Origin: a virus
Taxonomy: Duplodnaviria > Caudoviricetes
Virus record (IMG/VR): IMGVR_UViG_3300024181_000006
Coordinates: 1-53,617 of that record
Direction: 5' to 3' (one strand)
DNA length: 53,617 bases
Below the pieces are notes generated by a model. That model did not search any database. It was not told the origin of the DNA and saw nothing but the letters and a program-made list of their open reading frames with translations. The position numbers and the translations under genes were made by a program. Positions within the stretch are counted from its first letter, which is position 1, and the number at the start of each line of letters is the position of its first letter. This document shows, one piece after another, positions 3,725 through 53,095 of this stretch.

Positions 3725-3741
3725 TTGGCACACTTAATGCT
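3725..3741 (+). promoter_or_regulatory. sigma54 (-24/-12) promoter P1
   Basis: TTGGCACACTTAATGCT, GG-N10-GC spacing, intergenic, upstream of 3839. Confidence 0.8.
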
Positions 3742-3838
3742 ATATAGATTTCGTCATGCAAAGAATCTTAGAGGCGTAACTCAGTGTAAAGTTAGCTTCT
3801 AGTGTCAGTAAACCAAACAACAAAACAAAGTAAAACAT

Positions 3839-4393
3839 ATGGCTGAACAAACAGCACAACACGCTAATCCAACATCACCAAAGAAACGTGAGAAGATTCC
3901 TTCTATCGAAGTCGATAGGAACGAAGTGAAACTGAAGTTCGTTGATACTGAAGTAATGAAAGGCAAATCAAAAGGTTGGCCTTATCTTGCTCCAGAGAAA
4001 ACTACTCCAGATTCTTTGGACACGCTAATTGGTTGGATGGGAAGAGATGTTGCGGCACAGAAACTTCATGCTTTCGTCAAAGGTCTATCACAGGGCTGGA
4101 TGGAGGAAGCTGAATCACAAGCAACTGGTGAAGATGGCAAAGTTGACAACACAAAGTTGCTGGAAGTATTCGGAACACTTGCCAAAGAATTCTCTGCTCG
4201 TGGAGAATCAATTCCGAAGTTGAAGGAAGAAATCGAAGAACTCACCAATCAGATGACTGGTTTGGATTTGGATTCTCCAGACTTCCAGAAAGATTTCAAG
4301 GCATTTGCCGAAGAAATCAAACGCTTGCAAGTTGCTATTCAGAGCAAGCGCCGCAAGTCAGACGAAGAAGAGAACGCTGCTGCAAATGGTTAA
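3839..4393 (+). CDS. Hypothetical protein (monocistronic, coiled-coil C-terminus)
   Basis: 184 aa; has its own promoter, A-rich leader and terminator. Confidence 0.8.
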   Translation: MAEQTAQHANPTSPKKREKIPSIEVDRNEVKLKFVDTEVMKGKSKGWPYLAPEKTTPDSLDTLIGWMGRDVAAQKLHAFVKGLSQGWMEEAESQATGEDGKVDNTKLLEVFGTLAKEFSARGESIPKLKEEIEELTNQMTGLDLDSPDFQKDFKAFAEEIKRLQVAIQSKRRKSDEEENAAANG

Positions 4394-4442
4394 TTGGTTA
4401 CGCTAGGTTCTCAACGGTTCTCCTAGAGTAATTAATACAGAG

Positions 4443-4484
4443 ACTCCCGGTAGGTTGAAAGACTACTTACCGGGAGTTTTCTTT
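4443..4484 (+). terminator. Rho-independent terminator
   Basis: 13-bp stem ACTCCCGGTAGGT/ACTTACCGGGAGT followed by TTTCTTT. Confidence 0.85.
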
Positions 4485-4491
4485 CTCAAAC

Positions 4492-4521
4492 TTGACATGG
4501 TAATATAACCTAGTATAACAT
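4492..4521 (+). promoter_or_regulatory. Putative sigma70 promoter in tandem with P2
   Basis: TTGACA at 4492, then TATAAC (16-nt spacer) or TAACAT (18-nt spacer). Confidence 0.5.
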
Positions 4522-4525
4522 TAAC

Positions 4526-4542
4526 TTGGCACGATTCCTGCT
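4526..4542 (+). promoter_or_regulatory. sigma54 promoter P2
   Basis: TTGGCACGATTCCTGCT; heads the gene run containing the helicase and the bEBP. Confidence 0.88.
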
Positions 4543-5009
4543 GTATAAAGGCACCCTTCACTTTTATGAATGAAAAACGCACGCTAGTCAAACATAACTT
4601 AACCAATAAACTTGTAGAAAGAGAAGCACGCTGGAGAGATAAACATGGAACTATCTCCGCAAAACAGTGTGAGGTATGGCAGAAACAGAAGAAAGCAGCG
4701 GACTTACTTAAGCCAAGTGCATCTCTGATACGTCGAGCAGGTCAACGTCAGCACTCCAGAGCAACTAAATGATTTACCTTCGGGTAAGAAATCAGAATTG
4801 TCCTGGATTAACCTTCATAGGAATAGGTCAGAATCTATCTGAGGCAGAGACAGGATTGCTTATATCTATCCTTACAGAGATACATAATAATCCTGAAATC
4901 TCTGGAGGACAAGAGATGCTTCGTAATTCCTATGCATTAATCAGTGCATCATATCCTCATCCACCTAGAGATTTCTGTGTAGGTGAATGGCATTTCCTAT
5001 ACTACAACT

Positions 5010-5423
5010 ATGACAAGAACTAGCTTTGCTGCTCTGCTTCTAATTCTAGCTGGATGCTCTGCACCACAACCTAAACCAAAGATTGCAGGTCCTTCATCTA
5101 TTCCTGTAATGAAGTTTAGACCTCTACGTATAGCAGAAGCGGAAGTTTCTGTTAAACCTCCCAATCTTCCCAGATATCTACCACCCTTACGTTATCCTAC
5201 AAATGCTCCTGCTGCATTCTGGGTTCTACAATGGTCAGATGACTTAAAGCATTGGCATGTGCTGGCTAGATTCTATGGTAATTATCCTGATACGGCATTT
5301 GTGCCACCTAAGACTGGCAATAGATTCTTCAGGTATATCGGAACTCCACAGAAGCCTGCTTACGATGGCTTCATGACAAATAGACCAGATTTATGGCTTA
5401 AGTTAGGAGGAGATAAAGAATGA
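5010..5423 (+). CDS. Lipoprotein
   Basis: MTRTSFAALLLILAG-C lipobox (start re-called from 4983); LQWSDDLKHW...NRFFR motif. Confidence 0.7.
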   Translation: MTRTSFAALLLILAGCSAPQPKPKIAGPSSIPVMKFRPLRIAEAEVSVKPPNLPRYLPPLRYPTNAPAAFWVLQWSDDLKHWHVLARFYGNYPDTAFVPPKTGNRFFRYIGTPQKPAYDGFMTNRPDLWLKLGGDKE

Positions 5424-6355
5424 GTGACAAAAAGATTACCCTTCCATTATCAAGAGTATTGGAGTGGTTATGGGGATACAAAGATAGAGCGCCTGTAGAT
5501 GAGGCAGATGCACTTCTCATTGCTGCGATAGATAAGGATGAAGCTATCTGCCATATTCAGTATGAATCTCTTGAAGATGGCTCCATTCTAGATAATCCTC
5601 TAATCTGGAGAGTAAAGGAATGGCGCACATATCATTTGAAAATGATGCTTGATAAGGAAAAGCAAGCCAAGCAGCGCAAGGAATGGAATTTGCAGTCTGA
5701 GAATACCGAAATGCTTATGCGTGCATTAGCTAGGAAGTATGGCATCGAAGATAGAGAGATACTCAGAGGTATTGCTCATAAACTAGCAAGAAGTAAGAAT
5801 CAGGAATACGTTAACAAACTAGATGTTCCAGCAAAACTGGACATGGGAGATTAATATGAAAATCGCGCTAATGACATTCGAGGGTAAGCTACACAAGACT
5901 GTAGAATGGGATGGCAAAACAGAGCACAATGGAATGTATCTTAGGATTCCTAATGAACCTGAATGTGACCATTTCAGTGCTGTGCTTGCTATTAGACCTG
6001 AAGATGTAGATGAGTATACTACTCATTGTGCAGCATTAAATGACCAAATTATTAATCTGCAACATACACTCAATCAATATAAAGCCTCTGTGCATCACAG
6101 ATTGATACCATTCAAATCGTGAACATCATCTACAAAGTATCCTCTCCTCACGGTTATGCTTTTGTTGATACCTACGAGAATGCTTACAAATCTATGTTGG
6201 AAACATATCCTGAAGCAAATATTGGCATGATTCCTATAGAACAAAGAGATAAAACTATTAAAAGTTTTAATAGGATAGACAAAGGATGGTTCCTGATAGA
6301 AAAAATCGAAGTCAAAGATACACCACAAAGATTAATGCCATATACTAAGGTATGA
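5420..6355 (+). other. Hypothetical genes 5420..5854, 5823..6122, 6119..6355
   Basis: Overlapping or adjacent + strand ORFs. Confidence 0.6.
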
Positions 6356-8619
6356 GCAAACCACAACTGAGTCCTGAAGAGAAAGCAGATAAGCGTTTAC
6401 GCGACCAGATACGATATCTGGATAATAAGGTAAAGGGTGCGTGGTCATGGGGTCATCTAGTTACCTTTCAGGACTTATACAATCTTTATGAGTGGCAGCT
6501 TGTAGATGGTTGCACTCAGTCACATCTAGATACTAAGTTAACCTTCCAAGATATCAAGGATTTTCTAGAAGATAGACGAATAGAAGCAGAATGCTATATC
6601 TGGCTCAAACATAATCCTCCCTTTAATATACCTGAGCTAGATAAGATGATAGACCAAGTTGTAGAATCCAAAATAGCCAATCTTTCACTAGTTCCCGCCA
6701 ATCAGTTAGGAGATGTGCCGCCAATTAAGGCTGAGGTAGAGGTAAGACGCTGGGAACTAGAACCGTGTCCTCTAGATAAGAGTTTCCTGTATTGGTTCCA
6801 GAAGAAGGCTGTCTATCAACTCCTGAATAATATCCGTAAGTTAAATCATCGAGCGGATTTGCTTATAGCTGCAACTGGTTCAGGTAAGACATATATTGTA
6901 GGTGCTCTGCTGGCTAGATTGTATCATTCCAAGTGGCATGAAGGAAGAACACTTACACCTTGGCCTTATGTTTATGTAACCAAGGCATCTGTAGTTGAGC
7001 AAACTCAGAGAGTTCTTAAGAGACATTTTGGATTAACAGAGAATGAAGTTCTAGTAATCAATATAGACCAGCTTCGTTCACACTTCGGAACTAGATTTGT
7101 TAAGCCCGAAATTACAGTTGAGGATTGCGTAGAGTCCTGTAAATGGATATGGCGTCCACATGTATTTCCTGTAGTAATTGTTTGGGATGAGTGTCAGGCA
7201 CTTAAGAATCATTGGTCACAACAATCAGAGATTGCACAATCATACAATGATATACCGACCGAGAATACGTATCAGTTATTTGTTTCTGCAACACCCTTCG
7301 TTCGCGTCAGTGAAGCTAAGTGTTTTGTGGTTGCATCTAGGGTTCCTTATACGTTTGGATTGTCGAAAGATGCACCAATGTGTAATGAACATTGGAATGA
7401 TTTCGCGAAGAATATTGCTAGTGATTTTGGTAGATTAGAGACTAAGCCAGAGAATTACTCTCCCGGCGCGATGAATCGTCTGATGGCTTATATGTCAGAA
7501 TACATACATCGTGTTAAGGGAATTAAGACGCAGTTCAAGCCATTCAACACAATCAAAGTTATTAGCTTTGAGACAGAGAGAGGCCGTAAAGAATATGAGG
7601 AAGCATGGGAAAGATTTCAGAAGGAGAAAGCAGAACTTGAAGGAGATGAGTCTCTATCCAGTTCACAGGCAGCTTTCAACATACTCGCACAATTACAGGT
7701 CTTTCTCAAGGCAGCAGAAACAAACTACGATAGAGTGCATAAGATTGCTAGAGATATGTATCATGGAGTTCAAGAAGGATTTGCCTCTGTCGCTGCTGTG
7801 CGATTTAAGCTTACAATATGTAAGGTCGTTGAGATTCTCATCAAGGATTATGGAGTTAAACGCGATGAGATTAGTCTTATTTGGGGTGGAGCGCCAACTG
7901 CTAATAAGAAACAAAAGCTTAAAAAGTCCATTCTTGATTCCCCTCAGTTTCTAGAACAGATGGCCGCTACTGGATTAACATTCGAGGATTTAGATTTGGA
8001 TGAAGTAGAAGCTACTGAAGTTGCGGCATGGCCTAAGGAATATAGATTAGGTAATCAGAACTTTAAGGAGAGACAGAGAGAGATTGATAGATTCCAAAGA
8101 GGACAATCTCTATATTGCATATATACTTTCCGTGCTGGTGGAGTAGGACTTTCACTACATCATACGGATGACCTAACAAAAGAGAAAGTCAGACATAGAG
8201 AGAGTGGTTATGCGTTTGAAGAAGATATACCTAAGATTCCTACCAGACCCAGAAGAGTTGTCGTTACTCCTACGTGGTCTGCCATTGAACTTGTCCAAGG
8301 AGTTGGCCGCTGTCCAAGACTTACTTCACTTTCAGATACAAATCAGATTATGGAGTTCTACAGAGGAACGGTCGAAGAAAGACAGGCTAGAGTTGTTGGA
8401 GTTAAACTACACTGCCTCTCCAAGGTTGTTCGTAATAAGGAATCATGGGAAGACCTTATTATCGGTAGAAAAGGAATGTCTGAAGAAGAAGTTGAGCAAA
8501 AGCTCATCGAAGGTAGACAAGAAGTAGGTAATGAGGAACCTAAAGGTAATGGAGATGAAGAGACAGAGGGAACGTGGACTGGAGATGAAGATGAGAATGA
8601 CGAAGAAGATGATGATTGA
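6352..8619 (+). CDS. Superfamily 2 helicase (strawberry-notch-like C-terminal motifs)
   Basis: AATGSGKT, WDECQ, SATP, AGGVGLSLH, PTWSA..QGVGRCPR; acidic tail. Confidence 0.88.
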   Translation: MSKPQLSPEEKADKRLRDQIRYLDNKVKGAWSWGHLVTFQDLYNLYEWQLVDGCTQSHLDTKLTFQDIKDFLEDRRIEAECYIWLKHNPPFNIPELDKMIDQVVESKIANLSLVPANQLGDVPPIKAEVEVRRWELEPCPLDKSFLYWFQKKAVYQLLNNIRKLNHRADLLIAATGSGKTYIVGALLARLYHSKWHEGRTLTPWPYVYVTKASVVEQTQRVLKRHFGLTENEVLVINIDQLRSHFGTRFVKPEITVEDCVESCKWIWRPHVFPVVIVWDECQALKNHWSQQSEIAQSYNDIPTENTYQLFVSATPFVRVSEAKCFVVASRVPYTFGLSKDAPMCNEHWNDFAKNIASDFGRLETKPENYSPGAMNRLMAYMSEYIHRVKGIKTQFKPFNTIKVISFETERGRKEYEEAWERFQKEKAELEGDESLSSSQAAFNILAQLQVFLKAAETNYDRVHKIARDMYHGVQEGFASVAAVRFKLTICKVVEILIKDYGVKRDEISLIWGGAPTANKKQKLKKSILDSPQFLEQMAATGLTFEDLDLDEVEATEVAAWPKEYRLGNQNFKERQREIDRFQRGQSLYCIYTFRAGGVGLSLHHTDDLTKEKVRHRESGYAFEEDIPKIPTRPRRVVVTPTWSAIELVQGVGRCPRLTSLSDTNQIMEFYRGTVEERQARVVGVKLHCLSKVVRNKESWEDLIIGRKGMSEEEVEQKLIEGRQEVGNEEPKGNGDEETEGTWTGDEDENDEEDDD

Positions 8620-8864
8620 GGGATTCATCTTTGTCTTGGAATGCGTTACTGCTATTGTGGTGCTATTAACAATCGTTTATCTTATCTGTCATAAACTCTT
8701 ATGAATAAAGAAATTCAAGTAATACTGGATGAATTGGATGAACAACTTGATAAACTTTACTATCAAGCAGCACAAATTACTCCAAATGTAATCTCTCTTA
8801 GAAGTATATGGAATGAACTTAGAGTGATTAGAGCTAGAATTAATTCCCTAAAGAAAGAGCCTGA

Positions 8865-9558
8865 ATGATTTCTCTCCAAGACTACATAGATGCACTAATG
8901 CAATGTCAGGAACATTATGTGCAGCTTTCTGTTCGTCAATCCAGATTGCTTATAGATAATTGGGGAGATGCTGTTCATGCCTTATATGTTCTTGAGGATG
9001 AGAAAGACACAATTTATCCCAATACAGGAGCAACACTTCCTGCATTGACAGATGGCTCTAAACGATTATGGTATAGAACATCTTGGGAAGAATTTAATAG
9101 TCCACAAAAGAAGAAAGAACGTCTCATTAAACAAATGCTACAGGAACATTTAAAATCATGAAATTCACTGTAACTTGCTTGACTCGATTAACAAAATGTC
9201 ACGTTAAAGATTGTGATATATATGCTCAAATTCAAATTCGATTTGAGGATTGTGGTTATCTTTATCTTTGTCAGGCACACTATAATGTCATTCTTAATCT
9301 CTCTAAATTCATAGAAGAATCAAAACAAACTAAATCATGAAAATAAAGAACATGAATCAAGTTGGAGTTGTGCCACTAAATACTCTTGCTAGAGGAGAAT
9401 GTTTTAGTCACGGAGATACAGTTCTAATGGTAGTTGGTATACCTGATGGACATGCTATTCAAGCTGTAGGATTAGAATCAGGACTTATAACATCCTGGGA
9501 CCCAGTTCATCTGGTGCAAAGGGTCAATGGAATTTACAATTATGAAATTATAGCCTGA
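8865..9558 (+). other. Small hypothetical genes 8865..9161, 9158..9340, 9337..9558
   Basis: ATGA-coupled ORFs; 9158..9340 has C..C/C..H ligands. Confidence 0.6.
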
Positions 9559-9564
9559 TTATTT

Positions 9565-10431
9565 ATGAGCAACGGAAACAAGAAAGATTCCCCACCAGCA
9601 CCTCCTGATATCATTGAGAAGATACAGGCATTTCTAGATAATAATCTGCCAGACCTTGCTCTAGCTCTGATAGAGAAGTTTGGATTGCAGATTGATATTC
9701 AGGATGGTAGAATTGTAGATAAGCTCAATAGCACAGAGTTCTGGCTTAAGAAGTTTATCACTATAGACAATCAAACTACAGCCATGAAGGATTCAATTCG
9801 CAAACTTGCGAAAGTTGATGATGAAGTTCTAATTACAGGTCCATCAGGTTCTGGCAAAGAACTAATTGCACATGCCTTAATGGGTAATCGTGAGGGAAGT
9901 TTTGTTCCAGTTAATTGTGCAGGATTGCCAGATACTCTAATTGATTCTCTGTTATTCGGACATAAGAAGGGTTCATTTACTGGCGCAGATACAGATAAAG
10001 CTGGATTCTGTGTAGCGGCAAGAGACGGAATTCTATTCCTTGATGAAATTGGTGAATTGCCAATCACTTTACAAGCTAAGCTTCTAAGAGCTATTCAGGA
10101 GAAGAAGATTTTACCCATAGGTGATACAAAAGAAAGAGAGATATCCTGTAGATTTGTATTCGCAACTCATAGGAATCTCCAGCAGATGATTGCTGAGTCA
10201 CAATTTAGGATAGATTTATTTGCTAGGATATCTACATTTGAAATAGCTATTAAAGGATTGAAGGATAGGAAATGTGATATCATTCCAATCATAGAATCTC
10301 TGGATGGTGGACATGCGTATATCAATTATATGCAATCAAGAGGAAAGATTAATCCAGAAACTATTGATGTTAATTTAGGCGTGCGTTCTCTTCAACAATT
10401 GGTAAGGAGACATAAAGTCTTGCATACATGA
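9565..10431 (+). CDS. sigma54-dependent transcriptional activator (bEBP AAA+), lacking receiver and HTH domains
   Basis: VLITGPSGSGKELIA, FVPVNCA, LFGHKKGSFTGA (GAFTGA loop), LFLDEIGEL, LQAKLLR, ATHRNL, FRIDLFARI; the protein ends just after the lid helix (GVRSL). Confidence 0.95.
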   Translation: MSNGNKKDSPPAPPDIIEKIQAFLDNNLPDLALALIEKFGLQIDIQDGRIVDKLNSTEFWLKKFITIDNQTTAMKDSIRKLAKVDDEVLITGPSGSGKELIAHALMGNREGSFVPVNCAGLPDTLIDSLLFGHKKGSFTGADTDKAGFCVAARDGILFLDEIGELPITLQAKLLRAIQEKKILPIGDTKEREISCRFVFATHRNLQQMIAESQFRIDLFARISTFEIAIKGLKDRKCDIIPIIESLDGGHAYINYMQSRGKINPETIDVNLGVRSLQQLVRRHKVLHT

Positions 10432-10625
10432 GAATTAAATTTGAACCTAACTATTTCTTTATAGGACTTCATGTAATATGTAAGGAACAAACTATGACAA
10501 TGTGGTATGTAATCGTAGATAGAACATATCATCTTTGCATAATTCCGTTCTTTCCTATTGTATGGGAGAAGTCTAAGTTGATTTCTCGACATTGAGATGT
10601 TATATAAAGTTATATCAAATCTATT

Positions 10626-10642
10626 TTGGCACGATTCTTGCT
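10626..10642 (+). promoter_or_regulatory. sigma54 promoter P3
   Basis: TTGGCACGATTCTTGCT, near-perfect consensus; heads the GroES/recombination/replication run. Confidence 0.92.
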
Positions 10643-10693
10643 CTATAAGAATGTGAATAAGTCAGCTTGTCTTAACTAAATCATTAACACATT

Positions 10694-11086
10694 ATGCCAA
10701 CCAAAGCAGAAATTGCGGCTCAAAATGCTGCCAAAGAAAATCTAACTTCTGATGCTGAATCTCATAAACAAGTTAGCCAAACATTCGATGAAACAGCAAT
10801 CAAAAAGAAAATCCAAACTATCGAGGAGAATGTTAACAAGATAGTAGGTAGAAAAGGATACAATCCTCACTTTTGGCTTAATCAATCAGTTCATCCGCTA
10901 GTTAATCGATTTCTTGCTGGTGAACGAACTTCTGAACTTCAAGATGCTATTCTTGCTCTTCCTGATTCTCCACCCAAACTTGATATTAATTTGGGAATGA
11001 CTGAAGATGAGCAACGAAAGAAGTATGCTGAACTTCAAAGAGAGCAAGCTGCTTCGCCAATCGGTTTGATGATGCCTAAACATTAA
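10694..11086 (+). CDS. Hypothetical protein
   Basis: 130 aa, first gene after P3. Confidence 0.75.
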   Translation: MPTKAEIAAQNAAKENLTSDAESHKQVSQTFDETAIKKKIQTIEENVNKIVGRKGYNPHFWLNQSVHPLVNRFLAGERTSELQDAILALPDSPPKLDINLGMTEDEQRKKYAELQREQAASPIGLMMPKH

Positions 11087-11094
11087 GTATTTAT

Positions 11095-11171
11095 GGTGGG
11101 TATAAGTTTAACGACTTGTATGAAGGAACTAATCATCCTCTCACTGGAGTGATTACCAGTGCCCACTGCCA
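11095..11171 (+). ncRNA. Degenerate tRNA-like cloverleaf ending in CCA
   Basis: GGTGGGT/GCCCACT acceptor-like stem plus G-CCA, three internal hairpins, 77 nt; lacks the TTC T-loop. Confidence 0.4.
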
Positions 11172-11173
11172 AT

Positions 11174-11510
11174 TTCTACACTGTATAACAGTCCAGTGTA
11201 GAATAATTGTTAGGCAGTATTTACAATGCCCCGCCAAAATAAAAATCTGCCTCTTTCGCAGGGTATATAGGAAACTCTGCTACAATCCATCTTGAATACT
11301 ATACCGAACTTTGGTTCTATATGTTGAGATAGATGGTGATAACCCGACCACTAGCCACCCTGCAAGGTTAAACTAATGAGTCGGTTGACTTAAGTCTGAG
11401 TTGAACAGTAACATACAGACTAGGCGATTCAGGTCTACGCTAGTATCTATCATCATCGCTGAAACTCTAGGTTAGTAAGCCGTTTCGCATAAGGCTCATC
11501 ATAGATGATT
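11174..11510 (+). ncRNA. Structured non-coding region
   Basis: TTCTACACTG/CAGTGTAGAA, AGGCAG/CTGCCT, GCAGGGT/ACCCTGC enclosing CCATCT/AGATGG, AGTCTG/CAGACT; no ORF in the track. Confidence 0.4.
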
Positions 11511-11537
11511 GTAAGAATCTAGCATATAATAGAATTT

Positions 11538-11915
11538 ATGTCAACTGAACTAAGCAAAATAACCACGCTACTCAAAGATGTTGTAATCCTCAAACTTCAC
11601 AAGAGGCCAACTGGAACTATATCTGGACTAGTTCTTCCAGAAGCACACAGAGTTCCTATCGAACTGATTCCAGGTGAAGTTATAATGATTGGTTCCAAGT
11701 TCAGATTCAAAAATGAAGTAGATTTAGGAGATATACTTTGGGTGCCTTCACAGTTTGGGAATGCTGTGAATCAATTTGATGAATCCATAAGGTTCTATGA
11801 TGGGGAAGATTGTCACGCTATAATGAAGAAAAAGGATTATGTTCAACAACAGCATCATGTAGCTGCTGCAATCGTTGAAAAGCATCCAATGTCGGAGTAT
11901 CAAAAAGATGAGTAA
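11538..11915 (+). CDS. groES: GroES/Cpn10-like co-chaperonin
   Basis: LLKDVVIL..TISGLVLP..GEVIMIG..VDLGDIL..EDCHAIM matches the Cpn10 pattern. Confidence 0.75.
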   Translation: MSTELSKITTLLKDVVILKLHKRPTGTISGLVLPEAHRVPIELIPGEVIMIGSKFRFKNEVDLGDILWVPSQFGNAVNQFDESIRFYDGEDCHAIMKKKDYVQQQHHVAAAIVEKHPMSEYQKDE

Positions 11916-12791: not shown

Positions 12792-12805
12792 AATACCCAC
12801 ACGCT

Positions 12806-29358: not shown

Positions 29359-30921
29359 TTAGATTTTTACAGTATTCCAACACAACATGGCCATACTCAT
29401 CGATTTTGACGTTAAGTTCGCTCCGAAACTCATCAGGTCCTGCTCTTTTAGCTGACATATTCTTTTATCCATCCACTTTCGTATAAGGGATTTAAGTAAT
29501 GGTTTATCTGAGATAAAGTGAGCAATTTTCGGGCCAAACTTAATGTAACCCCTGAGTAACCAATTAGGAGCTTTTGTCATAAGCCATGTTCTAAAGAGCA
29601 TCCATTTAGGATTTTCTTCACCATAGACTTCTCTAGCAACCCAACATAGAGCAGCACCAGCAACTCCACCTGCTAGATTACCAACAGAACCCATAACTTG
29701 TCCGAGATAATCAGCCCAATCTTTCTTCTGAGCATTAATCTGTTTCATTCCCAGAGTGAATTGATTTTGCTGACCCTGTAATCCAGTCATGTTACCCATT
29801 AAGCCAGACATAACATTGTTTGCAGTTTGGTCAGGCTGTTGAACGCCTGTAAATTGACCAGCACCTTGATTAGTTGTTGAAGGTCTACCAGTAGCAACTT
29901 GAAATACATCAACACCAGATTTTGCAGTAGGTAGAAATGATGATGCTGTAGATATAGCAGAACCAAGCAAGGATTGTTGTTGCACTTTTCTCTGATATCC
30001 AGCTTGACCATACTGCATTGCATTAGCTACAGTTTCAGTAGCAGAAGGAGCATTTGCAGTTCCACGAGCATAGCTATCTCTAGCTAATCCTTGAGCTATC
30101 TCATTACGTTCCGTATCAGATAATCCACCATTAAGATTGATACTACCAAGCAAATCTTGCAATCTTCCAGCAGTAGTAGCACGAGTATCATAGTATGGTT
30201 TATCAAATACCTGCGATAGACCATATGCTTGATTAACTAAATCTGCACCAGGTCCAGCCATTACCTGACGTTCAGTATTAGCCTGTGCTAATGCATTCTG
30301 TCTATTAATAGCATTACCAATAGCATTAAGTTGTGGCCCATATTGATTAAACAATTGGGTCATCAACTGTGCATATCCGGGAGATGTAGCCTGAGAAATT
30401 CCTAAATCGGACAGCGAATTCTGAAGTTTACCCTTATTAGTAGCATCAAGAAGATATGGTAAAAGTGTCTGTAGAGTCCTAATCTGATTAGCTTGACCTA
30501 CAGCTGGACCTTTCCATTGCTGATTAGCACCAGGAACATTAGATACAGGAGTTGGATTCTGATATGGTGCTTTATTAGGGTCAGTAGAGTAAACTTGTCC
30601 ATTCTTGATGTATGGATTAAATGATGGCTTATTTCCTCCACCACCAAATAGACCACTAAGTAATCCAGTTGGGTCCATAGCATCCCACATATTGAAGTTA
30701 CCAGAAGTTAAGTCTGATAACTGTTGTGCTCCAGGACCTGCCATAAATCCCATGTCACCGAGAAATCCTCTTCCATTAGTTGCACCACTCATAGGCTGAT
30801 TAGGATTTCCAGCATATCTAGGAGGAGTATATCCACCCGGTAAAAATGATTGTGGATTATAGTTCTGTCCAGGAGGAAGAACTGGAACAGCTGCACTGTA
30901 TAGGTCTGAATAGTCAGGCAT
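29359..30921 (-). CDS. Internal virion (ejection) protein with C-terminal CWVAREVYG domain
   Basis: G/Q/N/A-rich helical body; CFI-box-CTERM-like tail. Confidence 0.6.
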   Translation of the reverse strand: MPDYSDLYSAAVPVLPPGQNYNPQSFLPGGYTPPRYAGNPNQPMSGATNGRGFLGDMGFMAGPGAQQLSDLTSGNFNMWDAMDPTGLLSGLFGGGGNKPSFNPYIKNGQVYSTDPNKAPYQNPTPVSNVPGANQQWKGPAVGQANQIRTLQTLLPYLLDATNKGKLQNSLSDLGISQATSPGYAQLMTQLFNQYGPQLNAIGNAINRQNALAQANTERQVMAGPGADLVNQAYGLSQVFDKPYYDTRATTAGRLQDLLGSINLNGGLSDTERNEIAQGLARDSYARGTANAPSATETVANAMQYGQAGYQRKVQQQSLLGSAISTASSFLPTAKSGVDVFQVATGRPSTTNQGAGQFTGVQQPDQTANNVMSGLMGNMTGLQGQQNQFTLGMKQINAQKKDWADYLGQVMGSVGNLAGGVAGAALCWVAREVYGEENPKWMLFRTWLMTKAPNWLLRGYIKFGPKIAHFISDKPLLKSLIRKWMDKRICQLKEQDLMSFGANLTSKSMSMAMLCWNTVKI

Positions 30922-41377: not shown

Positions 41378-42676
41378 TTATTGACCCCTCTTCCGTTTGA
41401 AGTAGATGGGAATACCATAGCGAGGTTGCTTCGCAAGGTTGCCATAGGTGCATTGCGAGATGAACTTCAGATATTCACCATACTGGTTAGTTTCCCAGAA
41501 TAGATTACCTGCATCATCATAGCAAGGGATAAGGAAGTTCTTAGTGATTTCTACTTCACCATTCCAGAACATCTTACCGAAACCTTTAGGCATCCCATTT
41601 CCTGCAAATGCGGCAGGAGGAGGACCAACTTGAATCTGCTCATAACCTTCAGCACCCATAAAGAATGCCATTTCGTAAGGAGAACCATTGGCAGCATCCA
41701 ATAAGGTATAGAGAGGATTAGGAATAGATTCGCCAGCATTGTAAGCTGCTGGATTGAGTTCCCTTACTTCAGGAGCAGGGAAAGTTCCATCGGCTCGCAT
41801 CCTTAAGGGTTTATCCTCAAGAATACAAGTTAGGCGGCCAAACAATGAACCCTTGAATCGTCCATTAACTACATCAAGAGCGCAATTCTTGTTAGCTAAT
41901 AGCCAGGGGTCAAATGTGAACTGGTTGAATGCTTCACCAGAGGTAACAACAACATACTTATCAGACATGCCATCTTCACCTTTAGGAAGTCCGCTTCCTG
42001 AAAATGGAGGAATACGCTGATCAGTTTCAGCAGCCGTCAGAAGTTTGTTCAGGGATTCAAATGAAAGATATCCCCGACCACCAATGTTAGCTACAGTTGC
42101 TTGATTGAATGCTGTAGTCTTACCGTCTGTTCCAGCAGAATTACCAACACCTATTGGAGCAGCTTGAAGTTCGTTGTTCTGATTGTTTGTGGCATCAGTA
42201 ACCCAAACAAACGGTGAGCGATGGAATATACGTCCACGAGTGAAGATATCCTCAAATCGTTCCATCTTCTCCATAATATCCTTACCACATGCATCAACAT
42301 GGTCAGTAAGGAAGTCACGAAATGAGGGAACAAAGTTAAGAACATTTGATTCAAACCTGTGACGGTAAACCAGTTCATCAACTTTACGTTCGCGAACATC
42401 CATCACATCTTTCTTTGGTGCCGCTGAAATTTCAGCAGGGAAAGCAAACTGACGAATGTGCGGTGAAGGTTCCTTTGTAACACTTCTCATGGTAGGACCC
42501 ATATTAGGTGTCCATTTCTTCTTACCAAGAAAACGTGCCCAAGTAACCCATGTCTTACGACGGTCAACTTGCATCTTAGCTAGATAGAAATCTAACCTAT
42601 TATACAAGTTTACGTCTTGTTCAGTCCAGCCTGAGCAAATATTCGCATCTACGGCCGGAATTTGTGCTAATGGCAT
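41378..42676 (-). CDS. Major capsid protein
   Basis: 432 aa downstream of portal and scaffold; dedicated promoter and downstream terminator. Confidence 0.8.
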
Positions 42677-42800: not shown

Positions 42801-42817
42801 AGCAGGTTTCGTGCCAA
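42801..42817 (-). promoter_or_regulatory. sigma54 promoter P4 (capsid)
   Basis: TTGGCACGAAACCTGCT on the - strand, 125 bp upstream of the MCP start. Confidence 0.9.
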
Positions 42818-45076: not shown

Positions 45077-45088
45077 AGCGTGTGATGT

Positions 45089-47101
45089 TTATTGTTGAGG
45101 AACTGGCTGACTTTGCTGCTGTTGAGGAGAACTTCCAGGAGAAGGAACACCAGATAATTGTCCAGCTTGCATAATCATCTGCTGTAACTGTTGCTTCTCA
45201 TCTGGATTGATTGTCTGAAGAATGTCTGGATGCTGTTGAAGTATTGCACCAGTGATGTGAGCTAATCCACCAAGCAATCCTTTCATCTGCTGTATCTGGT
45301 CCATCTGCCCAAGTATCTCAGCATATTGTTCACCAGTATCAGGATACTCAAGTTTCATTAAATCCTGAAGGAATCTGGTAGCAAGAGGAGTATTTTGAAT
45401 TACAGGCCAATCTTGCTTCATCTGCTGAATCTTCTCAGCACGTTGAACAACATCAACATCTCCTGCCGCTCTTAGTTCCCAAGTTTGAGATATAGTGTCT
45501 ATATCATTAACAAACTGAGGATTATCCTGACCAGGAGGCATCTGAGGATTGAACTGAGGATTAGGAATCAATAGAAACTTAATCTCTCCCTGCAAAGCTT
45601 GACTTTGCACAATAAGCCAAGCAAAAGAGTAAACTTCTCGAATATGTGTGCTATACAGAGTTAGCTGAACACTATTCAATATCTGTTGTTGACTCTGTGC
45701 AGCAGATATTTCTGTAGCTGTTTTGCGGGAATCTTGACGATTCATTGTCGCAAAGTTGACTTGATTGGTTTCCTCCGAATTGGCGGAATCCATGTATTCA
45801 AGTGCTTTGATAGTTTCAGGTGGAGGATAAGGAGGACTCCAGAACTGGATAGGTTTAGACATATACCTACCACCACGAATAACTAAATCCTCATACTCCT
45901 TTAGAGATGAACCTGTTCCATCCTCTTGAGCAGGACTAGCATAAATATTTGAAGAACGAGTAAGACCATTAATGTAGCCAGAAAGAATGGCCGTTTGAGA
46001 TTCTTGTTTGGGTTCATCATAGAAACATCTTCCCTTCTTATCTACCTCTTTAGGCTCCTCAGATTCACGATATGGAAGTAGAAATAGAGGATACTCAAGT
46101 AGAGGTGACTCTTCCCATTGCTCCTGCATTTGAGTAATAGGTGGCTGAGGTATCATTGCAATACCAGCAGGAGTTTGCATTGGCATATCAGGTTGAGGAA
46201 CCTGCACAGGCACCTGAACTTTATGTTTGATACCAACATAATGTTTCTCAGGCTGCTTAAGCCAGTCATCTACTTGGTCTGTAGTTGCAAACCATGAAAC
46301 ATATACTATACCCTCTTTCTTAAAGAATAGTTTATAGATACGAACAGTTTCATTCTCTTTCTGTGTATCTTTTCTGGAAGCAAGAAGTTTATTAACTTGT
46401 GCCTCATCAAATCCGAAATTTCTAACCCACTCACGAAGTTTGGTAATAGTTACATCATATGCACGAATGATTCGCGGCGCATCTCTTAAATTCTCGACTG
46501 TTCTGCCCCAAAACAGTTTATCATGTGCGACATACTCTAACCCAACATTTAAGGGTTTGGAAGAATCGAACACAACTTCAAGAGCAGCCCATCCATGTGC
46601 AGCAGAACCATCAATCTCTTTGAAGTGTGACTTCTCCCATGCAGTGTAAGTCATTCCTCTAGCAAAATCTGATTCAATTGCTTGAGGATCTTTCCCTGGA
46701 ACAGTTAAACAAAAGAATGTTGCTATCCTTCTTGAATTCTTAAGATAGTTGACATAAGCTGGAAGTTCCCTCTGTATATTAGTGTCAATAGTCCTTACAG
46801 GAACAATGGTTTCATCCTCATCCAAATCACCCTTCTGACGCAAACCTTCAACATCTAACTCAACTTTCCTTGTTTTGCGGCGCACTTCTGTATCTTCGAC
46901 TTCTGTATTCCAATCATCGATGATACGCTTAAGATGCACATATGCTTCAGACCAAGCATAAAGCTTCTCTTGTTCTGTATCAGAACCTGGAGGTGGCTCA
47001 GGTTTACCTGTTAGGGAATTTGGTAAATCCTGTAATCCAGCAGAAGTATTAATACTTCCAGGCTGTTGATGTTCACCTGGCCCGATATATTCTGGGTTCA
47101 T
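45089..47101 (-). CDS. Portal protein
   Basis: 670 aa downstream of TerL; KTATEI motif; Q/P-rich C-terminus. Confidence 0.8.
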   Translation of the reverse strand: MNPEYIGPGEHQQPGSINTSAGLQDLPNSLTGKPEPPPGSDTEQEKLYAWSEAYVHLKRIIDDWNTEVEDTEVRRKTRKVELDVEGLRQKGDLDEDETIVPVRTIDTNIQRELPAYVNYLKNSRRIATFFCLTVPGKDPQAIESDFARGMTYTAWEKSHFKEIDGSAAHGWAALEVVFDSSKPLNVGLEYVAHDKLFWGRTVENLRDAPRIIRAYDVTITKLREWVRNFGFDEAQVNKLLASRKDTQKENETVRIYKLFFKKEGIVYVSWFATTDQVDDWLKQPEKHYVGIKHKVQVPVQVPQPDMPMQTPAGIAMIPQPPITQMQEQWEESPLLEYPLFLLPYRESEEPKEVDKKGRCFYDEPKQESQTAILSGYINGLTRSSNIYASPAQEDGTGSSLKEYEDLVIRGGRYMSKPIQFWSPPYPPPETIKALEYMDSANSEETNQVNFATMNRQDSRKTATEISAAQSQQQILNSVQLTLYSTHIREVYSFAWLIVQSQALQGEIKFLLIPNPQFNPQMPPGQDNPQFVNDIDTISQTWELRAAGDVDVVQRAEKIQQMKQDWPVIQNTPLATRFLQDLMKLEYPDTGEQYAEILGQMDQIQQMKGLLGGLAHITGAILQQHPDILQTINPDEKQQLQQMIMQAGQLSGVPSPGSSPQQQQSQPVPQQ

Positions 47102-48009: not shown

Positions 48010-48023
48010 AAGCGTGTGTTTGA

Positions 48024-49733
48024 TTAATTGTTATTCATGGCAACAGAAATAGACCCTCTAACTCTACCTTTACTACCTGTCTTTTCTTTCATATTGTCAT
48101 AGTTTGAGTATGTTACTGAGTTCTCAAAGTGTTCATATGCAGCTTGCATAGTATCGAACTTCTCTTTCTGTCTATCATCTTTCTTCTCGGGTCTATCAAG
48201 AGAAAGGAAGTCATCTAGTGTAAGTCCAGTGTATGCTAGTATAAGTCCGTCTGCTCTGTCTGGGGAAGGTCGTCCTTCTGCTTTAGCTTCTTTCTTCGAT
48301 TCAAGAAATAATCTTCCGCTTGTATTCGTTTTCTTATAATGGCGAGTATAAAGTTGTTCGCGGCACAAAGGAGAAATAGTTGTAACATCAAAAAAACGCT
48401 CTTCGAGAATTCTAGAGAAACGATACCAATTCTCGGCTCCTTTATTACCATATAGCTTTTTAGAGACAGCAGGAGATTGATTAAGCACACGATTGATATT
48501 CCAACCCATATGCACGAGTTTATCAATAATAGCGCGTCCAACACCTCCATCATCCGCATAAATATACTTGTGGATTTTCGCGATTCCATATGTTTTAAGC
48601 TCCTTATCGATACGTAAAGCTGTAACTTCAGTATCTACTTCTCGAAATGCTATTTCTTTCTTGCACTTGTTACCATTACAGAATAGAATTGTATTTTCAT
48701 CACCGCCAGCAGCTAAGTCTATTCCAACTCTATCTTCCGGCAAAGCAGTATGTTCTTGAGGGTTGTTCTTAAAGAGTGCAAGTAAATCATCAATAAGTTT
48801 CTGAGGAATAACAGTTTCACCCGAAAGGGAAGTGAAGAGTGCAAGATAGATAGACCTGAATAGAGCAGAATTTTCACCCAAATCAATCTTGGCCTGCTCA
48901 ATTTCATCTTTGGAAATATGAGGACAATCATAAGATGTAACTCTTCTAGTGTTCTTCCAGTTAGTATAAGCTTTATAGAAATCTCCAGCAGGTTCACCTG
49001 CACTAGATATCTCAAACCAGTAGTTGTATCCAGTGCATCTCCTAAGTGCTCCATGAATCTCAGGAACTACAGATTTAGCTTCGTTGACTATAATAGTCAT
49101 CTCAGCATTAGGTTCTAGAGGATGATATCCTTCAGCTTTACCTGCTTCATCAGTAGCAAACAAACGAATCTCAGAACCCGATAGCATACATTTGATATAT
49201 CGCTGTCTAATTCTGAATATCTCACAACCATGAAAATCATTAACCTTCCTGCATAAAGATGCAATGTAGTTCTCAGTTTGACCTGTAAGCTGAACCCCCG
49301 AAGCAGAAGTTATGATACATCTAGACTTAATCTTTGATGCACAGAACCACGCTGCCCATCCTGCAATGATGAATGCATCTTTACCAGAACCATTGCATGT
49401 TAGTAAACAGAATCTATATGGATGCTGAGATGTAGACTTTGCCCCCGCAGCAGATTCATGAAACTCTGTTTGCCATTTGTGAAGGGTTACTGTTCCATTT
49501 GCTATTGACTTATCGTAGAACGCAAGAAATAGCGCCGGGTCGGGAAACTCTAGAACTTGATATTCTCCTTTAAGTGGGCCATCGCTATCTATGTAATCAC
49601 CTGGATATTGTTTCTCTGGAGAAGGTGTCTGCCCTATAGACGATTCTACGGTAATAGCCTCCTTTGCTAAGTCACGCATTAGACCATTGTTCGGAGCCTC
49701 TCCAGAGAAATTAGAAATTAAAAGTTCACTCAT
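48024..49733 (-). CDS. terL: Terminase large subunit
   Basis: LHKWQ, CNGSGKD, IIVNEA, GIDLAAGGDEN, DDGGVG, SPDRADG. Confidence 0.93.
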   Translation of the reverse strand: MSELLISNFSGEAPNNGLMRDLAKEAITVESSIGQTPSPEKQYPGDYIDSDGPLKGEYQVLEFPDPALFLAFYDKSIANGTVTLHKWQTEFHESAAGAKSTSQHPYRFCLLTCNGSGKDAFIIAGWAAWFCASKIKSRCIITSASGVQLTGQTENYIASLCRKVNDFHGCEIFRIRQRYIKCMLSGSEIRLFATDEAGKAEGYHPLEPNAEMTIIVNEAKSVVPEIHGALRRCTGYNYWFEISSAGEPAGDFYKAYTNWKNTRRVTSYDCPHISKDEIEQAKIDLGENSALFRSIYLALFTSLSGETVIPQKLIDDLLALFKNNPQEHTALPEDRVGIDLAAGGDENTILFCNGNKCKKEIAFREVDTEVTALRIDKELKTYGIAKIHKYIYADDGGVGRAIIDKLVHMGWNINRVLNQSPAVSKKLYGNKGAENWYRFSRILEERFFDVTTISPLCREQLYTRHYKKTNTSGRLFLESKKEAKAEGRPSPDRADGLILAYTGLTLDDFLSLDRPEKKDDRQKEKFDTMQAAYEHFENSVTYSNYDNMKEKTGSKGRVRGSISVAMNNN

Positions 49734-49846
49734 GGCTCACCCCATCTAGACAAGATAGGCGAATGTATTCAGATGGCGTGGCATACTCAGTAACAACAAT
49801 CGCGGTTCCAGAACTAACAAGTCTGACACATTGGCCATGAGTAAAT

Positions 49847-50290
49847 TCATTTACCATTAACAAGCTCCTTCACTTCAGCAGGAATCTCTATTACCTGCTC
49901 TTTAGAACGTTGCTTGGCTGCTATAGCTTTACGCATTTGCTCGTTAAATGATATGACGTTAATGTTAAGACCGCTTAGCTGCTTACCGATATCAAGTCTA
50001 CCTCGGCGGTCATTTCTAAGAAACATTGCTGCACGAAGCTGAGTTCTTTCATCAGCATCAGTATAGCCTCTGGCGATATTCGATATAACATCGACTACAG
50101 CCTGTTCTTGTTCATCAGTGAACCCTATCTCTTTAGGTGCTTTACCAGCAGCTTGTCTAAAGAGTGTAGAGAACTGCATTAGAATGGCCTTAACTGAGGT
50201 CAATTCTAACTCTTGGTCATCCGCAATTTCTTCCGGTGACATACCTAGTTCTTCATAGGCAGTTATGATTTGTTGGTCAGCTCCGCTCAT
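49847..50290 (-). CDS. Putative terminase small subunit
   Basis: N-terminal HTH (GMSPEEIA), helical, directly upstream of TerL. Confidence 0.55.
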   Translation of the reverse strand: MSGADQQIITAYEELGMSPEEIADDQELELTSVKAILMQFSTLFRQAAGKAPKEIGFTDEQEQAVVDVISNIARGYTDADERTQLRAAMFLRNDRRGRLDIGKQLSGLNINVISFNEQMRKAIAAKQRSKEQVIEIPAEVKELVNGK

Positions 50291-50586
50291 ACCGTTGATA
50301 CATCTACTAATGTTCTACTGTAGAATCGGTCTCTTCTGTAATGGTAGCTGCACCTTAAACCATGTGCTGGTTTTCCACAATCAATGCAATAGCATTTCTT
50401 CTTGAGTCTCTGCCTAACCTGACTAAGTAATCGAAGCAATTCCTCATTTCCACTTTGGTTCGCAAGGATGAGTTGCTCTTTAACTGCTGATAGAGTTGGA
50501 TAGAGTCTGAGTAACCTTCTGATTTTCCGAATATCAGATATTTTTAAAGGCTCCGTTATTCTTGAGCCAAAGTATAAGTTCAGCAT
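50287..50586 (-). CDS. Zinc-finger protein
   Basis: CIDCG...CSYH. Confidence 0.5.
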   Translation of the reverse strand: MLNLYFGSRITEPLKISDIRKIRRLLRLYPTLSAVKEQLILANQSGNEELLRLLSQVRQRLKKKCYCIDCGKPAHGLRCSYHYRRDRFYSRTLVDVSTV

Positions 50587-50871
50587 CTTTAAGATCCCAG
50601 GGAACCAGATTCTTTGTGGCTAGAGGTATAACGTTTGTATAGAACTCTCGCCAAATAACCTCAATGGGTAGATTGAAGTATTTAAGACCGATTCTTACGA
50701 TTCGATGTAGTCTGAGGTAACACATAATTTTCCTCCACTTTTTGTTTTGCTTTCCGTATTTCAGATAGCATCTCTTCGGATATAACCATCCCAGGAGAAC
50801 GTTTAGTTACTATCCTCCCCTCCCCACTAATATCCAGATATTTAGATGCATTTCTCAACCATGCAATAGAT

Positions 50872-50888
50872 AGCAAGAGTCATGCCAA
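50872..50888 (-). promoter_or_regulatory. sigma54 promoter P5 (late/packaging operon)
   Basis: TTGGCATGACTCTTGCT on the - strand, at the head of the whole virion arm. Confidence 0.88.
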
Positions 50889-51174
50889 GGTTCTCAGAGT
50901 TGCAATACAGTATAAGTAAGAAGTCATGCCCACCTAAAGCAAGGTTGAGATACAGTGCATCTCAAGGATGAGAGTTATATTAGAAATATTTGAGTTAGGG
51001 ACAATTATAGAGAAAATTCTACGAGTAAGTCAGGGGCCCCATGTCAACTAATTTCGGGGTGCCTACTGGCTTAATTTGCTCAGACTGGACCATACCAATG
51101 CTCAATAATCGCCACTAACTTAGTGATGACTACAACATATAGTGTTACATAGAACTAAACGATACCACTAATAG

Positions 51175-51191
51175 TTGGCATAGGACTAGCT
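51175..51191 (+). promoter_or_regulatory. sigma54 promoter P6
   Basis: TTGGCATAGGACTAGCT, divergent from P5. Confidence 0.7.
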
Positions 51192-51204
51192 ATATGTGAC
51201 TTGC

Positions 51205-51590
51205 AGTTGATGAGCATTCTGCCTTGTCCTGCGTGGGCACTTTCGCCCTAGATAGTAGATTTATTGTGTTCACAGAACACTCACCGCTAAGTCCGGGTAG
51301 GGCGGTATATAAAACAAGGTCATAGGGTAACAGTAAATCCGCTGGCTCATTAGTCAAGCAGGGAATGAAACGATATACCTGAAAGTGAGGCAACACCATC
51401 ACAAAGTATGCTAGACTGTTAGCATAGTCCCTAGCTTGGGCAAAGCAACGCTACCAGACATAGATAGTATCCTTCTAAAACTGGTCTCAAATCCAAGCTA
51501 CGCTCGGTAGATTAATAAAGATATCTACTCGGCAGCATAGGCTTCTATGATACTAGAGTAACACCTATGTTGCCCAAGCTGGGGATTGTG
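51205..51590 (+). ncRNA. Highly structured RNA / long leader
   Basis: 21-bp helix 51423-51443/51570-51590 with 3 G-U pairs; CACTTTC/GAAAGTG; CGCCCTA/TAGGGCG. Confidence 0.6.
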
Positions 51591-51637
51591 TGATTCCTAG
51601 CAAGCTAGCTAGAAACCAAATAACAGTTAAATCATAT

Positions 51638-52246
51638 ATGAGCAAAGCATTAACTCAAAACGCTACAGAGTTGGCTCCTTCTCTACATGGAGAAGAAGAC
51701 TATGACTTCAATGCAAGCGTCAAACGCCAAGCTACTAAAACAGCTAAAGGCACTACACGCGAAAGATTGACGTTAAATCGCAACAAGCTTATTTCCCATG
51801 TGTGCGGCGAATTCAGAATGAACTTCGCTAGCATCTATGGCAAGTCTGAGAAGCTTCCTCGCGATATCTTCGACAAGGTGGAGATTGCGGTAGACAACTA
51901 CCTAACAGAGCAACTCAAACAGGTCAACAGCCTGAATGTTATTAGCTCGCGACGTGCCTTCTATCACGTTGCAAGACAGGTTGAGATTGTTGAGCGCGTG
52001 ACCATCATCGGTGAGAACAAGCTTGTCCTGCAAGAGCAGCTACTTGGAGTTGACTTGATGATTAACGCAGCTGAAAAGCGATTGCGGGATTTGTATGCCA
52101 AGAACACTCCCAACTTCGACCGGGAGAAATCAGTTCAAGCGCAAATCATGCAGCTTAATCTTACCAAGCAGTATATACTGGGTGAGATTGGCCAGCAGGA
52201 GAAACTTAAGAAAGAAGCTTCTGCAACACAGACTTCCGCCAGTTAG
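51638..52246 (+). CDS. Hypothetical basic protein with coiled-coil C-terminus
   Basis: Open frame 51590..52246; ATG at 51638 follows an A-rich leader. Confidence 0.75.
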   Translation: MSKALTQNATELAPSLHGEEDYDFNASVKRQATKTAKGTTRERLTLNRNKLISHVCGEFRMNFASIYGKSEKLPRDIFDKVEIAVDNYLTEQLKQVNSLNVISSRRAFYHVARQVEIVERVTIIGENKLVLQEQLLGVDLMINAAEKRLRDLYAKNTPNFDREKSVQAQIMQLNLTKQYILGEIGQQEKLKKEASATQTSAS

Positions 52247-52329
52247 AAGGATACGAGTTAGGGCTGTGCTAACAGTCTAGCATATTGAATGCTATGAGCA
52301 TATCTGCTATAATCGAAACAGACTCTTTA

Positions 52330-52731
52330 GCCTAAAGTAGATTATCTATTAATTGCAGAGCCATCGCAGCCTATGAAATACTTAGGTGATGGGTAGGTAA
52401 AGTTAGCGTGCAATACGTCAACTGTAATCTATTTTTACACAATATGCGACTTGGTGTGTCTAGCAATTTCCACTTCATAGAAACCGATTATAGATAAGCA
52501 GGCTTATGGTATTCACGTTAAAATGGAAATCTCCATACTCTAATATATACTTGCGTTAAATCAGAAAAACTCAGCTATTGCCTAAAGTTCCTGAATACAA
52601 CAAACAGCGAGTCTGCTGCAAAAGGTTCAGTTATGAGTTATCCGAAGTGGAAAGCATTTTTGCGGAAAACTTCAAAATAACAAAGGGAGCCAGAGTTCAC
52701 GATATGTTGTATATTAGAGTTCTCTTAACGT
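52330..52731 (+). ncRNA. Two further structured non-coding elements
   Basis: Nested TAGATTA/TAATCTA, ATTGCA/TGCAAT, CCATCGC/GTGATGG plus T-tract; ACGTTAA/TTAACGT enclosing ACTCTAATATA/TATATTAGAGT. Confidence 0.45.
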
Positions 52732-52748
52732 ATGGCACGCTTTATGCC
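52732..52748 (+). promoter_or_regulatory. sigma54 promoter-like site P7
   Basis: ATGGCACGCTTTATGCC, GG-N10-GC. Confidence 0.6.
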
Positions 52749-52780
52749 TAAAGTGATATAAACCAGTATACGTGTCGTTA

Positions 52781-52878
52781 TATATATAACCTTATATAAC
52801 ATAGGGCCTTCTTAAAATGTTTGAAATGAAAAAAAGTTGTTTTTGTGGCCTCACGAGAGTTATATAAGGTTATATATA
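52781..52878. repeat. Perfect 20-bp inverted repeat (origin/operator candidate)
   Basis: TATATATAACCTTATATAAC (52781-52800) / GTTATATAAGGTTATATATA (52859-52878). Confidence 0.85.
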
Positions 52879-53012
52879 AAGAGATAGTAGAGGGTGGAGG
52901 GGATTATATACCAGTATACCTATAACGACCGTTATATCTCATTATATATCTTTCCATTAAGGTCTACATTCATTTCTAGTATAATCTAATTTCAACATCA
53001 CACAAACCTAAT

Positions 53013-53051
53013 TTCTCATTCTTGCGAACTCAAACATTCTCATTCTTGCGA
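53013..53051. repeat. 15-bp direct repeat x2
   Basis: TTCTCATTCTTGCGA at 53013 and 53037, just upstream of P8. Confidence 0.8.
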
Positions 53052-53078
53052 TGCTTAAAAATTATTAATCTAGAAAGG

Positions 53079-53095
53079 TTGGCACAAATTATGCT
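53079..53095 (+). promoter_or_regulatory. sigma54 promoter P8 (early small-gene cluster)
   Basis: TTGGCACAAATTATGCT. Confidence 0.8.

Follow-up and report, generated by a model that had tools for sequence, protein, structure and literature searches.

Sigma54 RNA polymerase binds -24/-12 sites and remains closed until a bacterial enhancer-binding protein (bEBP) opens it using ATP. Phage factors that redirect the host RNA polymerase include MotA/AsiA and gp55/gp33/gp45 of T4, the sigma factors of SPO1, Mor and C of Mu, and Ogr of P2; in each case a phage gene product moves the host polymerase onto phage promoters, as we propose here for sigma54. To our knowledge, all of these factors act on or replace sigma70-family factors, and none is an ATP-driven sigma54 remodeller. 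Here, we analyze a phage genome of 53,617 bases (Caudoviricetes; IMG/VR record IMGVR_UViG_3300024181_000006, rated 98% complete; 38.8% GC), which we call the window. Sigma54-type sites head its early, replication, packaging and capsid blocks, and one of its genes encodes a protein which, by sequence, has a bEBP AAA+ domain with all of the sigma54-remodelling motifs and neither a helix-turn-helix (HTH) nor a receiver domain. The promoter set and this activator are conserved together across the phage family. The phage therefore probably runs most of its transcription via the host sigma54 polymerase and brings its own activator, and we infer that the whole lytic programme depends on sigma54.

Among described phages, YuA of Pseudomonas (Yuavirus) is likewise lytic, has no polymerase of its own and makes use of host sigma54 promoters. 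Its GenBank record annotates three -24/-12 promoters in the virion/lysis region, and the original study reportedly included an rpoN-mutant test. According to the available text of PMC10914365, YuA depends on both sigma70 and sigma54; it has additional sigma70 and phage-specific promoters, and long-read mapping tied no more than one start site to a sigma54-like promoter. We found no match to the activator profile in YuA at E<=1, and none of its sites fits the strict motif. The family of the window, in contrast, has near-consensus sites over the early, replication and late blocks, plus the activator. A first-pass annotation of the window, made from the letters alone, regarded the use of sigma54 as uncharacterized in phages, which was overstated given YuA; the new element is the phage-encoded HTH-less activator conserved across a family. 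The full-text literature searched, which did not extend to subscription papers, yielded no case of a phage that encodes a GAFTGA-type activator alongside sigma54 promoters of its own, and supplements may hold some, for example the start-site table of PMC10914365 or virome annotation tables. The available text of PMC12316311 adds nothing on phages.

The first-pass annotation had placed eight sigma54-type sites in the window at the heads of the main transcription units, intergenic or at the edges of open reading frames (ORFs) and along the gene direction. All eight are present with exact GG-N10-GC spacing and 0-3 mismatches to YTGGCACG-N4-TTGCW, and all lie outside our gene model (hand-chosen, 93% of the sequence covered), each directed towards the next co-directional gene (Table 1). 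A comparison with shuffled sequence, which the annotation had proposed, bears this out for the better matches and less so for the raw count; the striking feature is the position of the sites. Sites with at most two mismatches number 8 against a shuffle mean of 1.05 (maximum 5), and 8 of 11 matches to the loose pattern TGGCA-N8-GC are non-coding (binomial p = 9e-8, post hoc), the other three being intragenic; the loose count of 11 itself is borderline, with a shuffle mean of 4.4 and a maximum of 11 in 200 shuffles. Six of the eight better sites are those already annotated, and two are good sense-direction sites inside late genes (29521-29537 and 33384-33400, both on the minus strand). Nine or ten promoters are possible in the window, because relatives have sites in this late block (G010, G015 and G034 for the block of 29521). 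Several of the annotated sites also recur individually: a site precedes the homologue of ORF 3839-4393 in 8 of 10 BLAST rows (one row being a short second match in L040), the homologue of the gene behind 51175 in G001, G031 and G015, and, at a position similar to 53079, the small-gene cluster in G001 and G002. Scans for sigma70 promoters stayed at chance level (34 against 38.0 for 1-12000; 12 against 11.2 for 49500-53617).

We then compared the motif across relatives. Out of 81 viral loci recruited by the activator, L008, L100 and L105 were dropped, as they share at most the activator gene with the window, and the remaining 78 were reduced to 59 at <90% identity (1.02 Mb). TGGCAY-N7-GC has 206 matches in these 59 loci, of which 150 are intergenic and 121 of these sense, whereas the wrong spacers N5, N6, N8 and N9 give 44-58 matches each with 6-8 intergenic. 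The sigma54 consensus is also followed at positions outside the search pattern, with T before GC in 90% and T after it in 95%. The conservation that the first-pass annotation had suggested checking is clear at three places. Of 58 relatives, 53 have a site no more than 750 nt beyond the activator stop, where each wrong spacer gives one in just 1 of the 58; a site lies 149-278 nt upstream of the capsid gene in all nine capsid-recruited loci with the whole ORF; and 38 of 42 loci, picked from 61 by upstream length and low redundancy, have a site within 3.5 kb upstream of the terminase, against 9 for two wrong spacers together. Positional conservation in dozens of relatives and the spacing controls thus back the assignment of sigma54-type promoters to the heads of the main units. 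Upstream of the activator, in its co-directional run, 29 of 41 loci have a sense site, and the control yields 1. The intergenic DNA of the family contains the motif 82 times in sense (shuffle 1.8) and 14 times in antisense. The sigma70 pattern TTGAC-N17-19-TAnn[AT]T (5 against 3.6) and the Bacteroidota-type TAnnTTTG (41 against 40) are unenriched there, which leaves the sigma54 motif as the sole enriched promoter class among those tested. Antisense or back-to-back sites were seen in three relatives: L001 has one at 11482-11496 (-), in G002 two divergent sites, at 26057 (-) and 26120 (+), precede the capsid gene, and G034 has overlapping opposite sites at 49144-49187 that could block each other.

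The pairing of activator and sites was also examined in records recruited by terminase, a set that avoids selection by activator; of the 49 records chosen, mostly the longest, 48 were searched. The activator is present in 40 of the 48, and among the 37 with a completeness of 90% or more, 35 have it, with one bEBP gene per record (the copy in G041 is cut by the record ends). A separate set not selected by activator gave the same picture, with the activator in all eight near-complete records. Strict sites total 267 in the 35 near-complete carriers (median 8, range 2-12), and a reversed-pattern control finds 13. Two near-complete records lack the activator, G046 and G047; G046 has only the terminase in common with the window, and its five motif matches are all inside ORFs.

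The activator itself was mentioned only in passing in the first-pass annotation; it is present, as ORF 9565-10431, and deserved more weight. The protein consists of a variable N-terminal piece of ~60 amino acids (aa) and the AAA+ domain, with the motifs GPSGSGKE, NCAG, GSFTGA, LFLDE, FRIDLFAR and GVRSL. Its structural model (predicted local distance difference test, pLDDT, 94.9) terminates in helix 273-286 and matches the AAA+ domains of FleQ, FlrC, NtrC1 and PspF (Foldseek E 4e-23 to FleQ). No receiver or other Pfam family was found on residues 1-67, and HTH_8 (PF02954) is absent from this protein and from its 120 listed homologues. In an alignment of 114 of these 120, residues K98, N117, D160, E161, R215, R221 and R274 are invariant (114/114), which covers the Walker A lysine, the switch asparagine, the Walker B DE, both arginine fingers and the sensor-II arginine. 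The L1 loop reads G[AS]FTGA in 108 of the 114 (GAFTGA in 58, GSFTGA in 50). In the available text of PMC3162934, the A2-to-S substitution of GAFTGA is functional in LevR, and nearly all L1 variants found in our short-type clusters are classed as functional or putatively functional, with a few first-position exceptions. The sensor-II arginine is followed by 14-23 residues in 113 of 114 homologues, and the N-terminal piece varies from 17 to 131 aa, with only 17-24 aa in six relatives. When the best 150 clusters at 50% identity were sorted by our own filter, ~92 fell into this short type.

By its sequence, the protein is a bEBP that belongs to none of the five described groups. Groups 1-4 (NtrC, DmpR, NifA, PspF) have a C-terminal HTH that binds the enhancer, which is missing from the phage activator. 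The group 5 proteins FlgR and CtcC are likewise HTH-less and enhancer-independent; however, they carry a kinase-controlled receiver domain, and the phage activator has none. RtcR is the best NCBIfam match (E 3e-65) and has FRxDL[FY]ARI in common, plus SxLFGH in the protein of the window, although the match reaches 221 bits against a cut-off of 650, spans profile positions 176-369 only, and the N-terminal sensor and HTH of RtcR are lacking in the phage protein. RtcR cores score 165 bits against the phage profile, and other bEBPs 222 bits. FleT of Rhodobacter sphaeroides and the engineered DctD250 are also bEBPs without a signal or DNA-binding domain (PMC7175178, PMC3162934, PMC3844500), and in reviews, as far as their accessible text goes, FleT stands as the sole known bEBP that lacks both outer domains (PMC7175178, PMC3162934). 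However, FleT is an individual flagellar regulator of a cell and DctD250 an artificial construct, whereas the phage activators form a clade with a shortened lid. The isolated AAA+ domain in DctD250 is described as giving enhancer-free, promiscuous and constitutive activation (PMC3844500, in part), and the phage protein is predicted to work like such an enhancer-independent bEBP/sigma54 system. Phage Htm/Gp204 (bioRxiv 10.64898/2026.10.06.757011) is also an HTH-less AAA+ protein with a bEBP-like fold, hypothesized to act on sigma54 polymerase; it differs in having no GAFTGA loop and an altered Walker B and in acting on host genes, and the portion of the preprint available describes no phage sigma54 promoter set. 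The AAA+ domain also matches PHROG 7998, an entry annotated as of unknown function; some relatives of the activator are therefore present among catalogued phage or prophage proteins. Matches among deposited phages are partial, and the annotated ones are cellular regulators in bacterial or mixed records; one deposited record, H37, has a match with no annotation at that place.

In the mechanism that we propose, sigma54 polymerase would form closed complexes on the incoming phage DNA, and a first round would owe its start to host activators in solution or to weak transcription that does not use sigma54. A weak candidate for such a sigma70-type primer is the match TTGACA...TATAAC/TAACAT at 4492-4521, which is not conserved in L001. 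The activator would then open all phage promoters from solution, and since its gene lies downstream of sigma54 sites, its product would feed back positively. The outcome would be an amplifying switch independent of host signals, and a clean one, because sigma54 promoters are tightly off without an activator; host sigma54 promoters may be fired as well. In its full form the proposal is that a widespread uncultured family, with Verrucomicrobiota as probable hosts, relies on sigma54 promoters for transcription of essentially the entire genome, by means of its own stand-alone, always-on activator ATPase and positive feedback; towards this form we lean only slightly.

Several observations weigh against host sigma54 polymerase driven by a self-sufficient phage activator. 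FleT, the only known cellular protein of this architecture, needs its partner FleQ. The lid of the phage protein is shortened and its sensor-II motif altered (xNVRSL against WPGNVREL), so its activity is not guaranteed. Some family members have only 2-4 strict sites, 5 of 58 relatives have no site after the activator, and 12 of 41 loci, by a heuristic call, have none upstream of it; of the BLAST rows compared, only those of L001 and L002 have a site at the 4526 position. No enrichment of sigma70 or Bacteroidota-type promoters that could prime the loop appears in family intergenic DNA. Finally, isolated AAA+ domains are weak, ~10-fold below the cognate activator in the text available (PMC3844500).

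Two other roles for the protein can be considered. It could be a co-activator resembling FleT, inactive alone, that forms mixed rings with a host bEBP or is aimed at phage DNA by another phage protein such as the small HTH protein at 2813-3109. The unique position of FleT among bEBPs (PMC7175178) and the shortened lid fit this, and the ~60-aa N-terminal piece, which is modelled as well folded in the subgroup of the window, could bind a partner. We nevertheless consider it unlikely: conservation extends to Walker A, Walker B, both arginine fingers and the L1 loop, the N-terminal piece is almost missing in six relatives, and neither the 121 promoter flanks nor intergenic 7-mers hold a conserved enhancer motif. 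Slightly less likely again is that host bEBPs open the promoters while the phage protein, as a decoy or modulator, diverts host sigma54 transcription or switches it off. YuA does have -24/-12 promoters without any activator gene, and the HTH-less cellular activators of Bacteroidota and Chthonomonas loci could open phage promoters from solution; however, a decoy has no need of invariant catalytic residues, and in 35 of 37 records the activator is accompanied by promoters spread over the genome; it also adjoins the strongest site.

The motif, rather than the protein, is at issue in a further alternative, in which it only resembles the sigma54 consensus and is recognized by a phage-specific factor or by polymerase of the sigma70 family. 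Small HTH proteins with weak sigma70-r4 matches do exist in the phage (2813-3109, E 5e-5, below cut-off), and the bEBP-like TyrR and DhaR act on sigma70, yet proteins of this type have defective GAFTGA loops, unlike the phage variants with their few first-position exceptions (PMC3162934, available text). The strict spacing and the full match to the sigma54 consensus also speak against such a reader, as does the domain search, in which no sigma70-r2 domain was found in the phage genome; we regard this explanation as very improbable. A sigma54 domain was not found either, in keeping with the first-pass annotation that no full sigma factor was visible. Chance matches would explain a loose-pattern count that merely equals the shuffle maximum. 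Position, strand, spacing controls and family-wide conservation reduce chance to a negligible prospect for the window and refute it at the family level.

If the full form of the proposal is true, these phages follow a strategy without a sigma70 phase, a phage polymerase or a phage sigma factor, and the family would be a natural source of many promiscuous sigma54 activators. The preferred reading, host sigma54 polymerase opened by a phage activator, would add a route of takeover, an ATP-driven key to the host's locked sigma54 polymerase, to those that use a sigma factor, an anti-sigma factor or a polymerase. The many AAA+-only proteins of the family could show how enhancer-independent activation works and may become tools for mapping sigma54 regulons. 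The same reading predicts that rpoN mutants are resistant to these phages.

Regarding origin, three trees place the phage activators on one side of a branch and cellular bEBPs on the other (SH-aLRT 99, 94 and 97); one of these is a quick tree whose filter left out four Bacteroidota rows. A tree constrained to link them with the HTH-less activators of Bacteroidota and Chthonomonas outscored the quick free tree (p-AU 0.74), so this link is not rejected. RtcR adjoins the phage activators in the FastTree tree, only via a long branch. The HTH-less proteins concerned (L112, L134, L153, L161 and L128) are FlgR/CtcC-like cellular bEBPs of 383-396 aa from Bacteroidota and Chthonomonas. In a GTDB scan with the activator, only cellular bEBPs and no provirus of the phage family were among the matches listed.

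The host is, by a modest preference, a member of the Verrucomicrobiota; Bacteroidota are a considerably less likely choice. Among deposited sequences, the terminase is best matched in three Akkermansia phages (E 2e-31 to 2e-38), and the match after these has E 1e-17. By crude first-ATG calls, Shine-Dalgarno-like words precede 14% of genes in the phage family, 9% in an Akkermansia phage and 5% in Bacteroidota loci, unlike loci of Proteobacteria, Planctomycetota or Bacillota (29-50%).

Table 1. Sigma54-type sites and associated features of the window
Feature	Position	Strand	Remarks
Sigma54-type promoter	3725..3741	+	Before 184-aa ORF 3839-4393; predicted +1 ~3752
Hairpin and T-run, terminator-like	4443..4484	+	Between ORF 3839 and 4526 promoter; read from sequence, not in scanner list
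Sigma54-type promoter	4526..4542	+	1 mismatch; heads helicase/activator run, autoregulatory position; predicted +1 ~4553
SF2 (superfamily 2) helicase	6352..8619	+	Activator operon; ResIII E 9e-8, DEAD E 3e-5
Sigma54 activator, bEBP-type AAA+ ATPase (predicted)	9565..10431	+	288 aa; PF00158 E 8e-55, 185.5 bits against cut-off 20.2
Sigma54-type promoter, perfect consensus	10626..10642	+	0 mismatches; directly after activator run, heads replication block; predicted +1 ~10653
Possible ninth site, intragenic	29521..29537	-	1 mismatch; ORF 28210-29295 follows after 226 nt; absent from first-pass annotation
Major capsid protein, HK97-type	41378..42676	-	Foldseek best E 3e-7 to phage capsids; low-confidence model, mean pLDDT 58.6
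Sigma54-type promoter	42801..42817	-	125 nt before capsid gene; predicted +1 ~42790
Large terminase	48024..49733	-	tblastn to annotated terminases; profile matches to solved terminases weak
Sigma54-type promoter	50872..50888	-	Heads packaging/portal block; predicted +1 ~50861
Divergent sigma54-type promoter	51175..51191	+	3 mismatches; before ORF 51590/51638-52246; predicted +1 ~51202
Weakest candidate site	52732..52748	+	3 mismatches, ATGG...GCC; predicted +1 ~52759
Sigma54-type promoter	53079..53095	+	Before ORF 53267 and, over circular junction, small-gene cluster 102-3712; predicted +1 ~53106

The window looks best read as a circle, since its 133-nt end repeat passes through ORFs and is apparently an assembly overlap; the sites at 52732 and 53079 would then head the small-gene cluster at 53267 and 102-3712. 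The capsid, packaging and helicase labels of the first-pass annotation are borne out: the model of the capsid protein, although of low confidence, has a capsid-like fold, the terminase has terminase matches, and the helicase has SF2 domains. Foldseek matches of the capsid model are the capsids of cyanophage A4, GP4 and N4; an Atlas lead, PF13252, is on 11% of one cluster, and the protein has no match among deposited phages. The portal label of 45089-47101 rests on position and size, because the profile search gave unrelated matches only.

The run 3' of 4526 contains the helicase and the activator, and that 3' of 10626 contains a GroES-like protein, a deoxynucleoside monophosphate kinase, an AAA_24 protein, a family A polymerase and a DUF3987 protein. 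The GroES-like protein (11538-11915, +) matches Cpn10 with E 5e-4, slightly below cut-off. The family A DNA polymerase is apparently split into exonuclease and polymerase genes (16154-17698 and 19378-20508, +), with small ORFs between. A DNA polymerase exonuclease-like protein (42824-43432, -; phrog_192, E 2e-29) lies within the virion block directly before the capsid promoter and is conserved there. The 184-aa protein of 3839-4393 (+) is a coiled-coil protein with its own sigma54-type promoter and terminator-like hairpin, a unit conserved in relatives, and is probably highly expressed. Three long non-coding stretches (11086-11538, 50890-51590 and 52250-53267) contain hairpins; the long intergenic stretches have no Rfam match and the window no tRNAs, and these stretches are possibly phage RNAs, an origin or the true genome ends.

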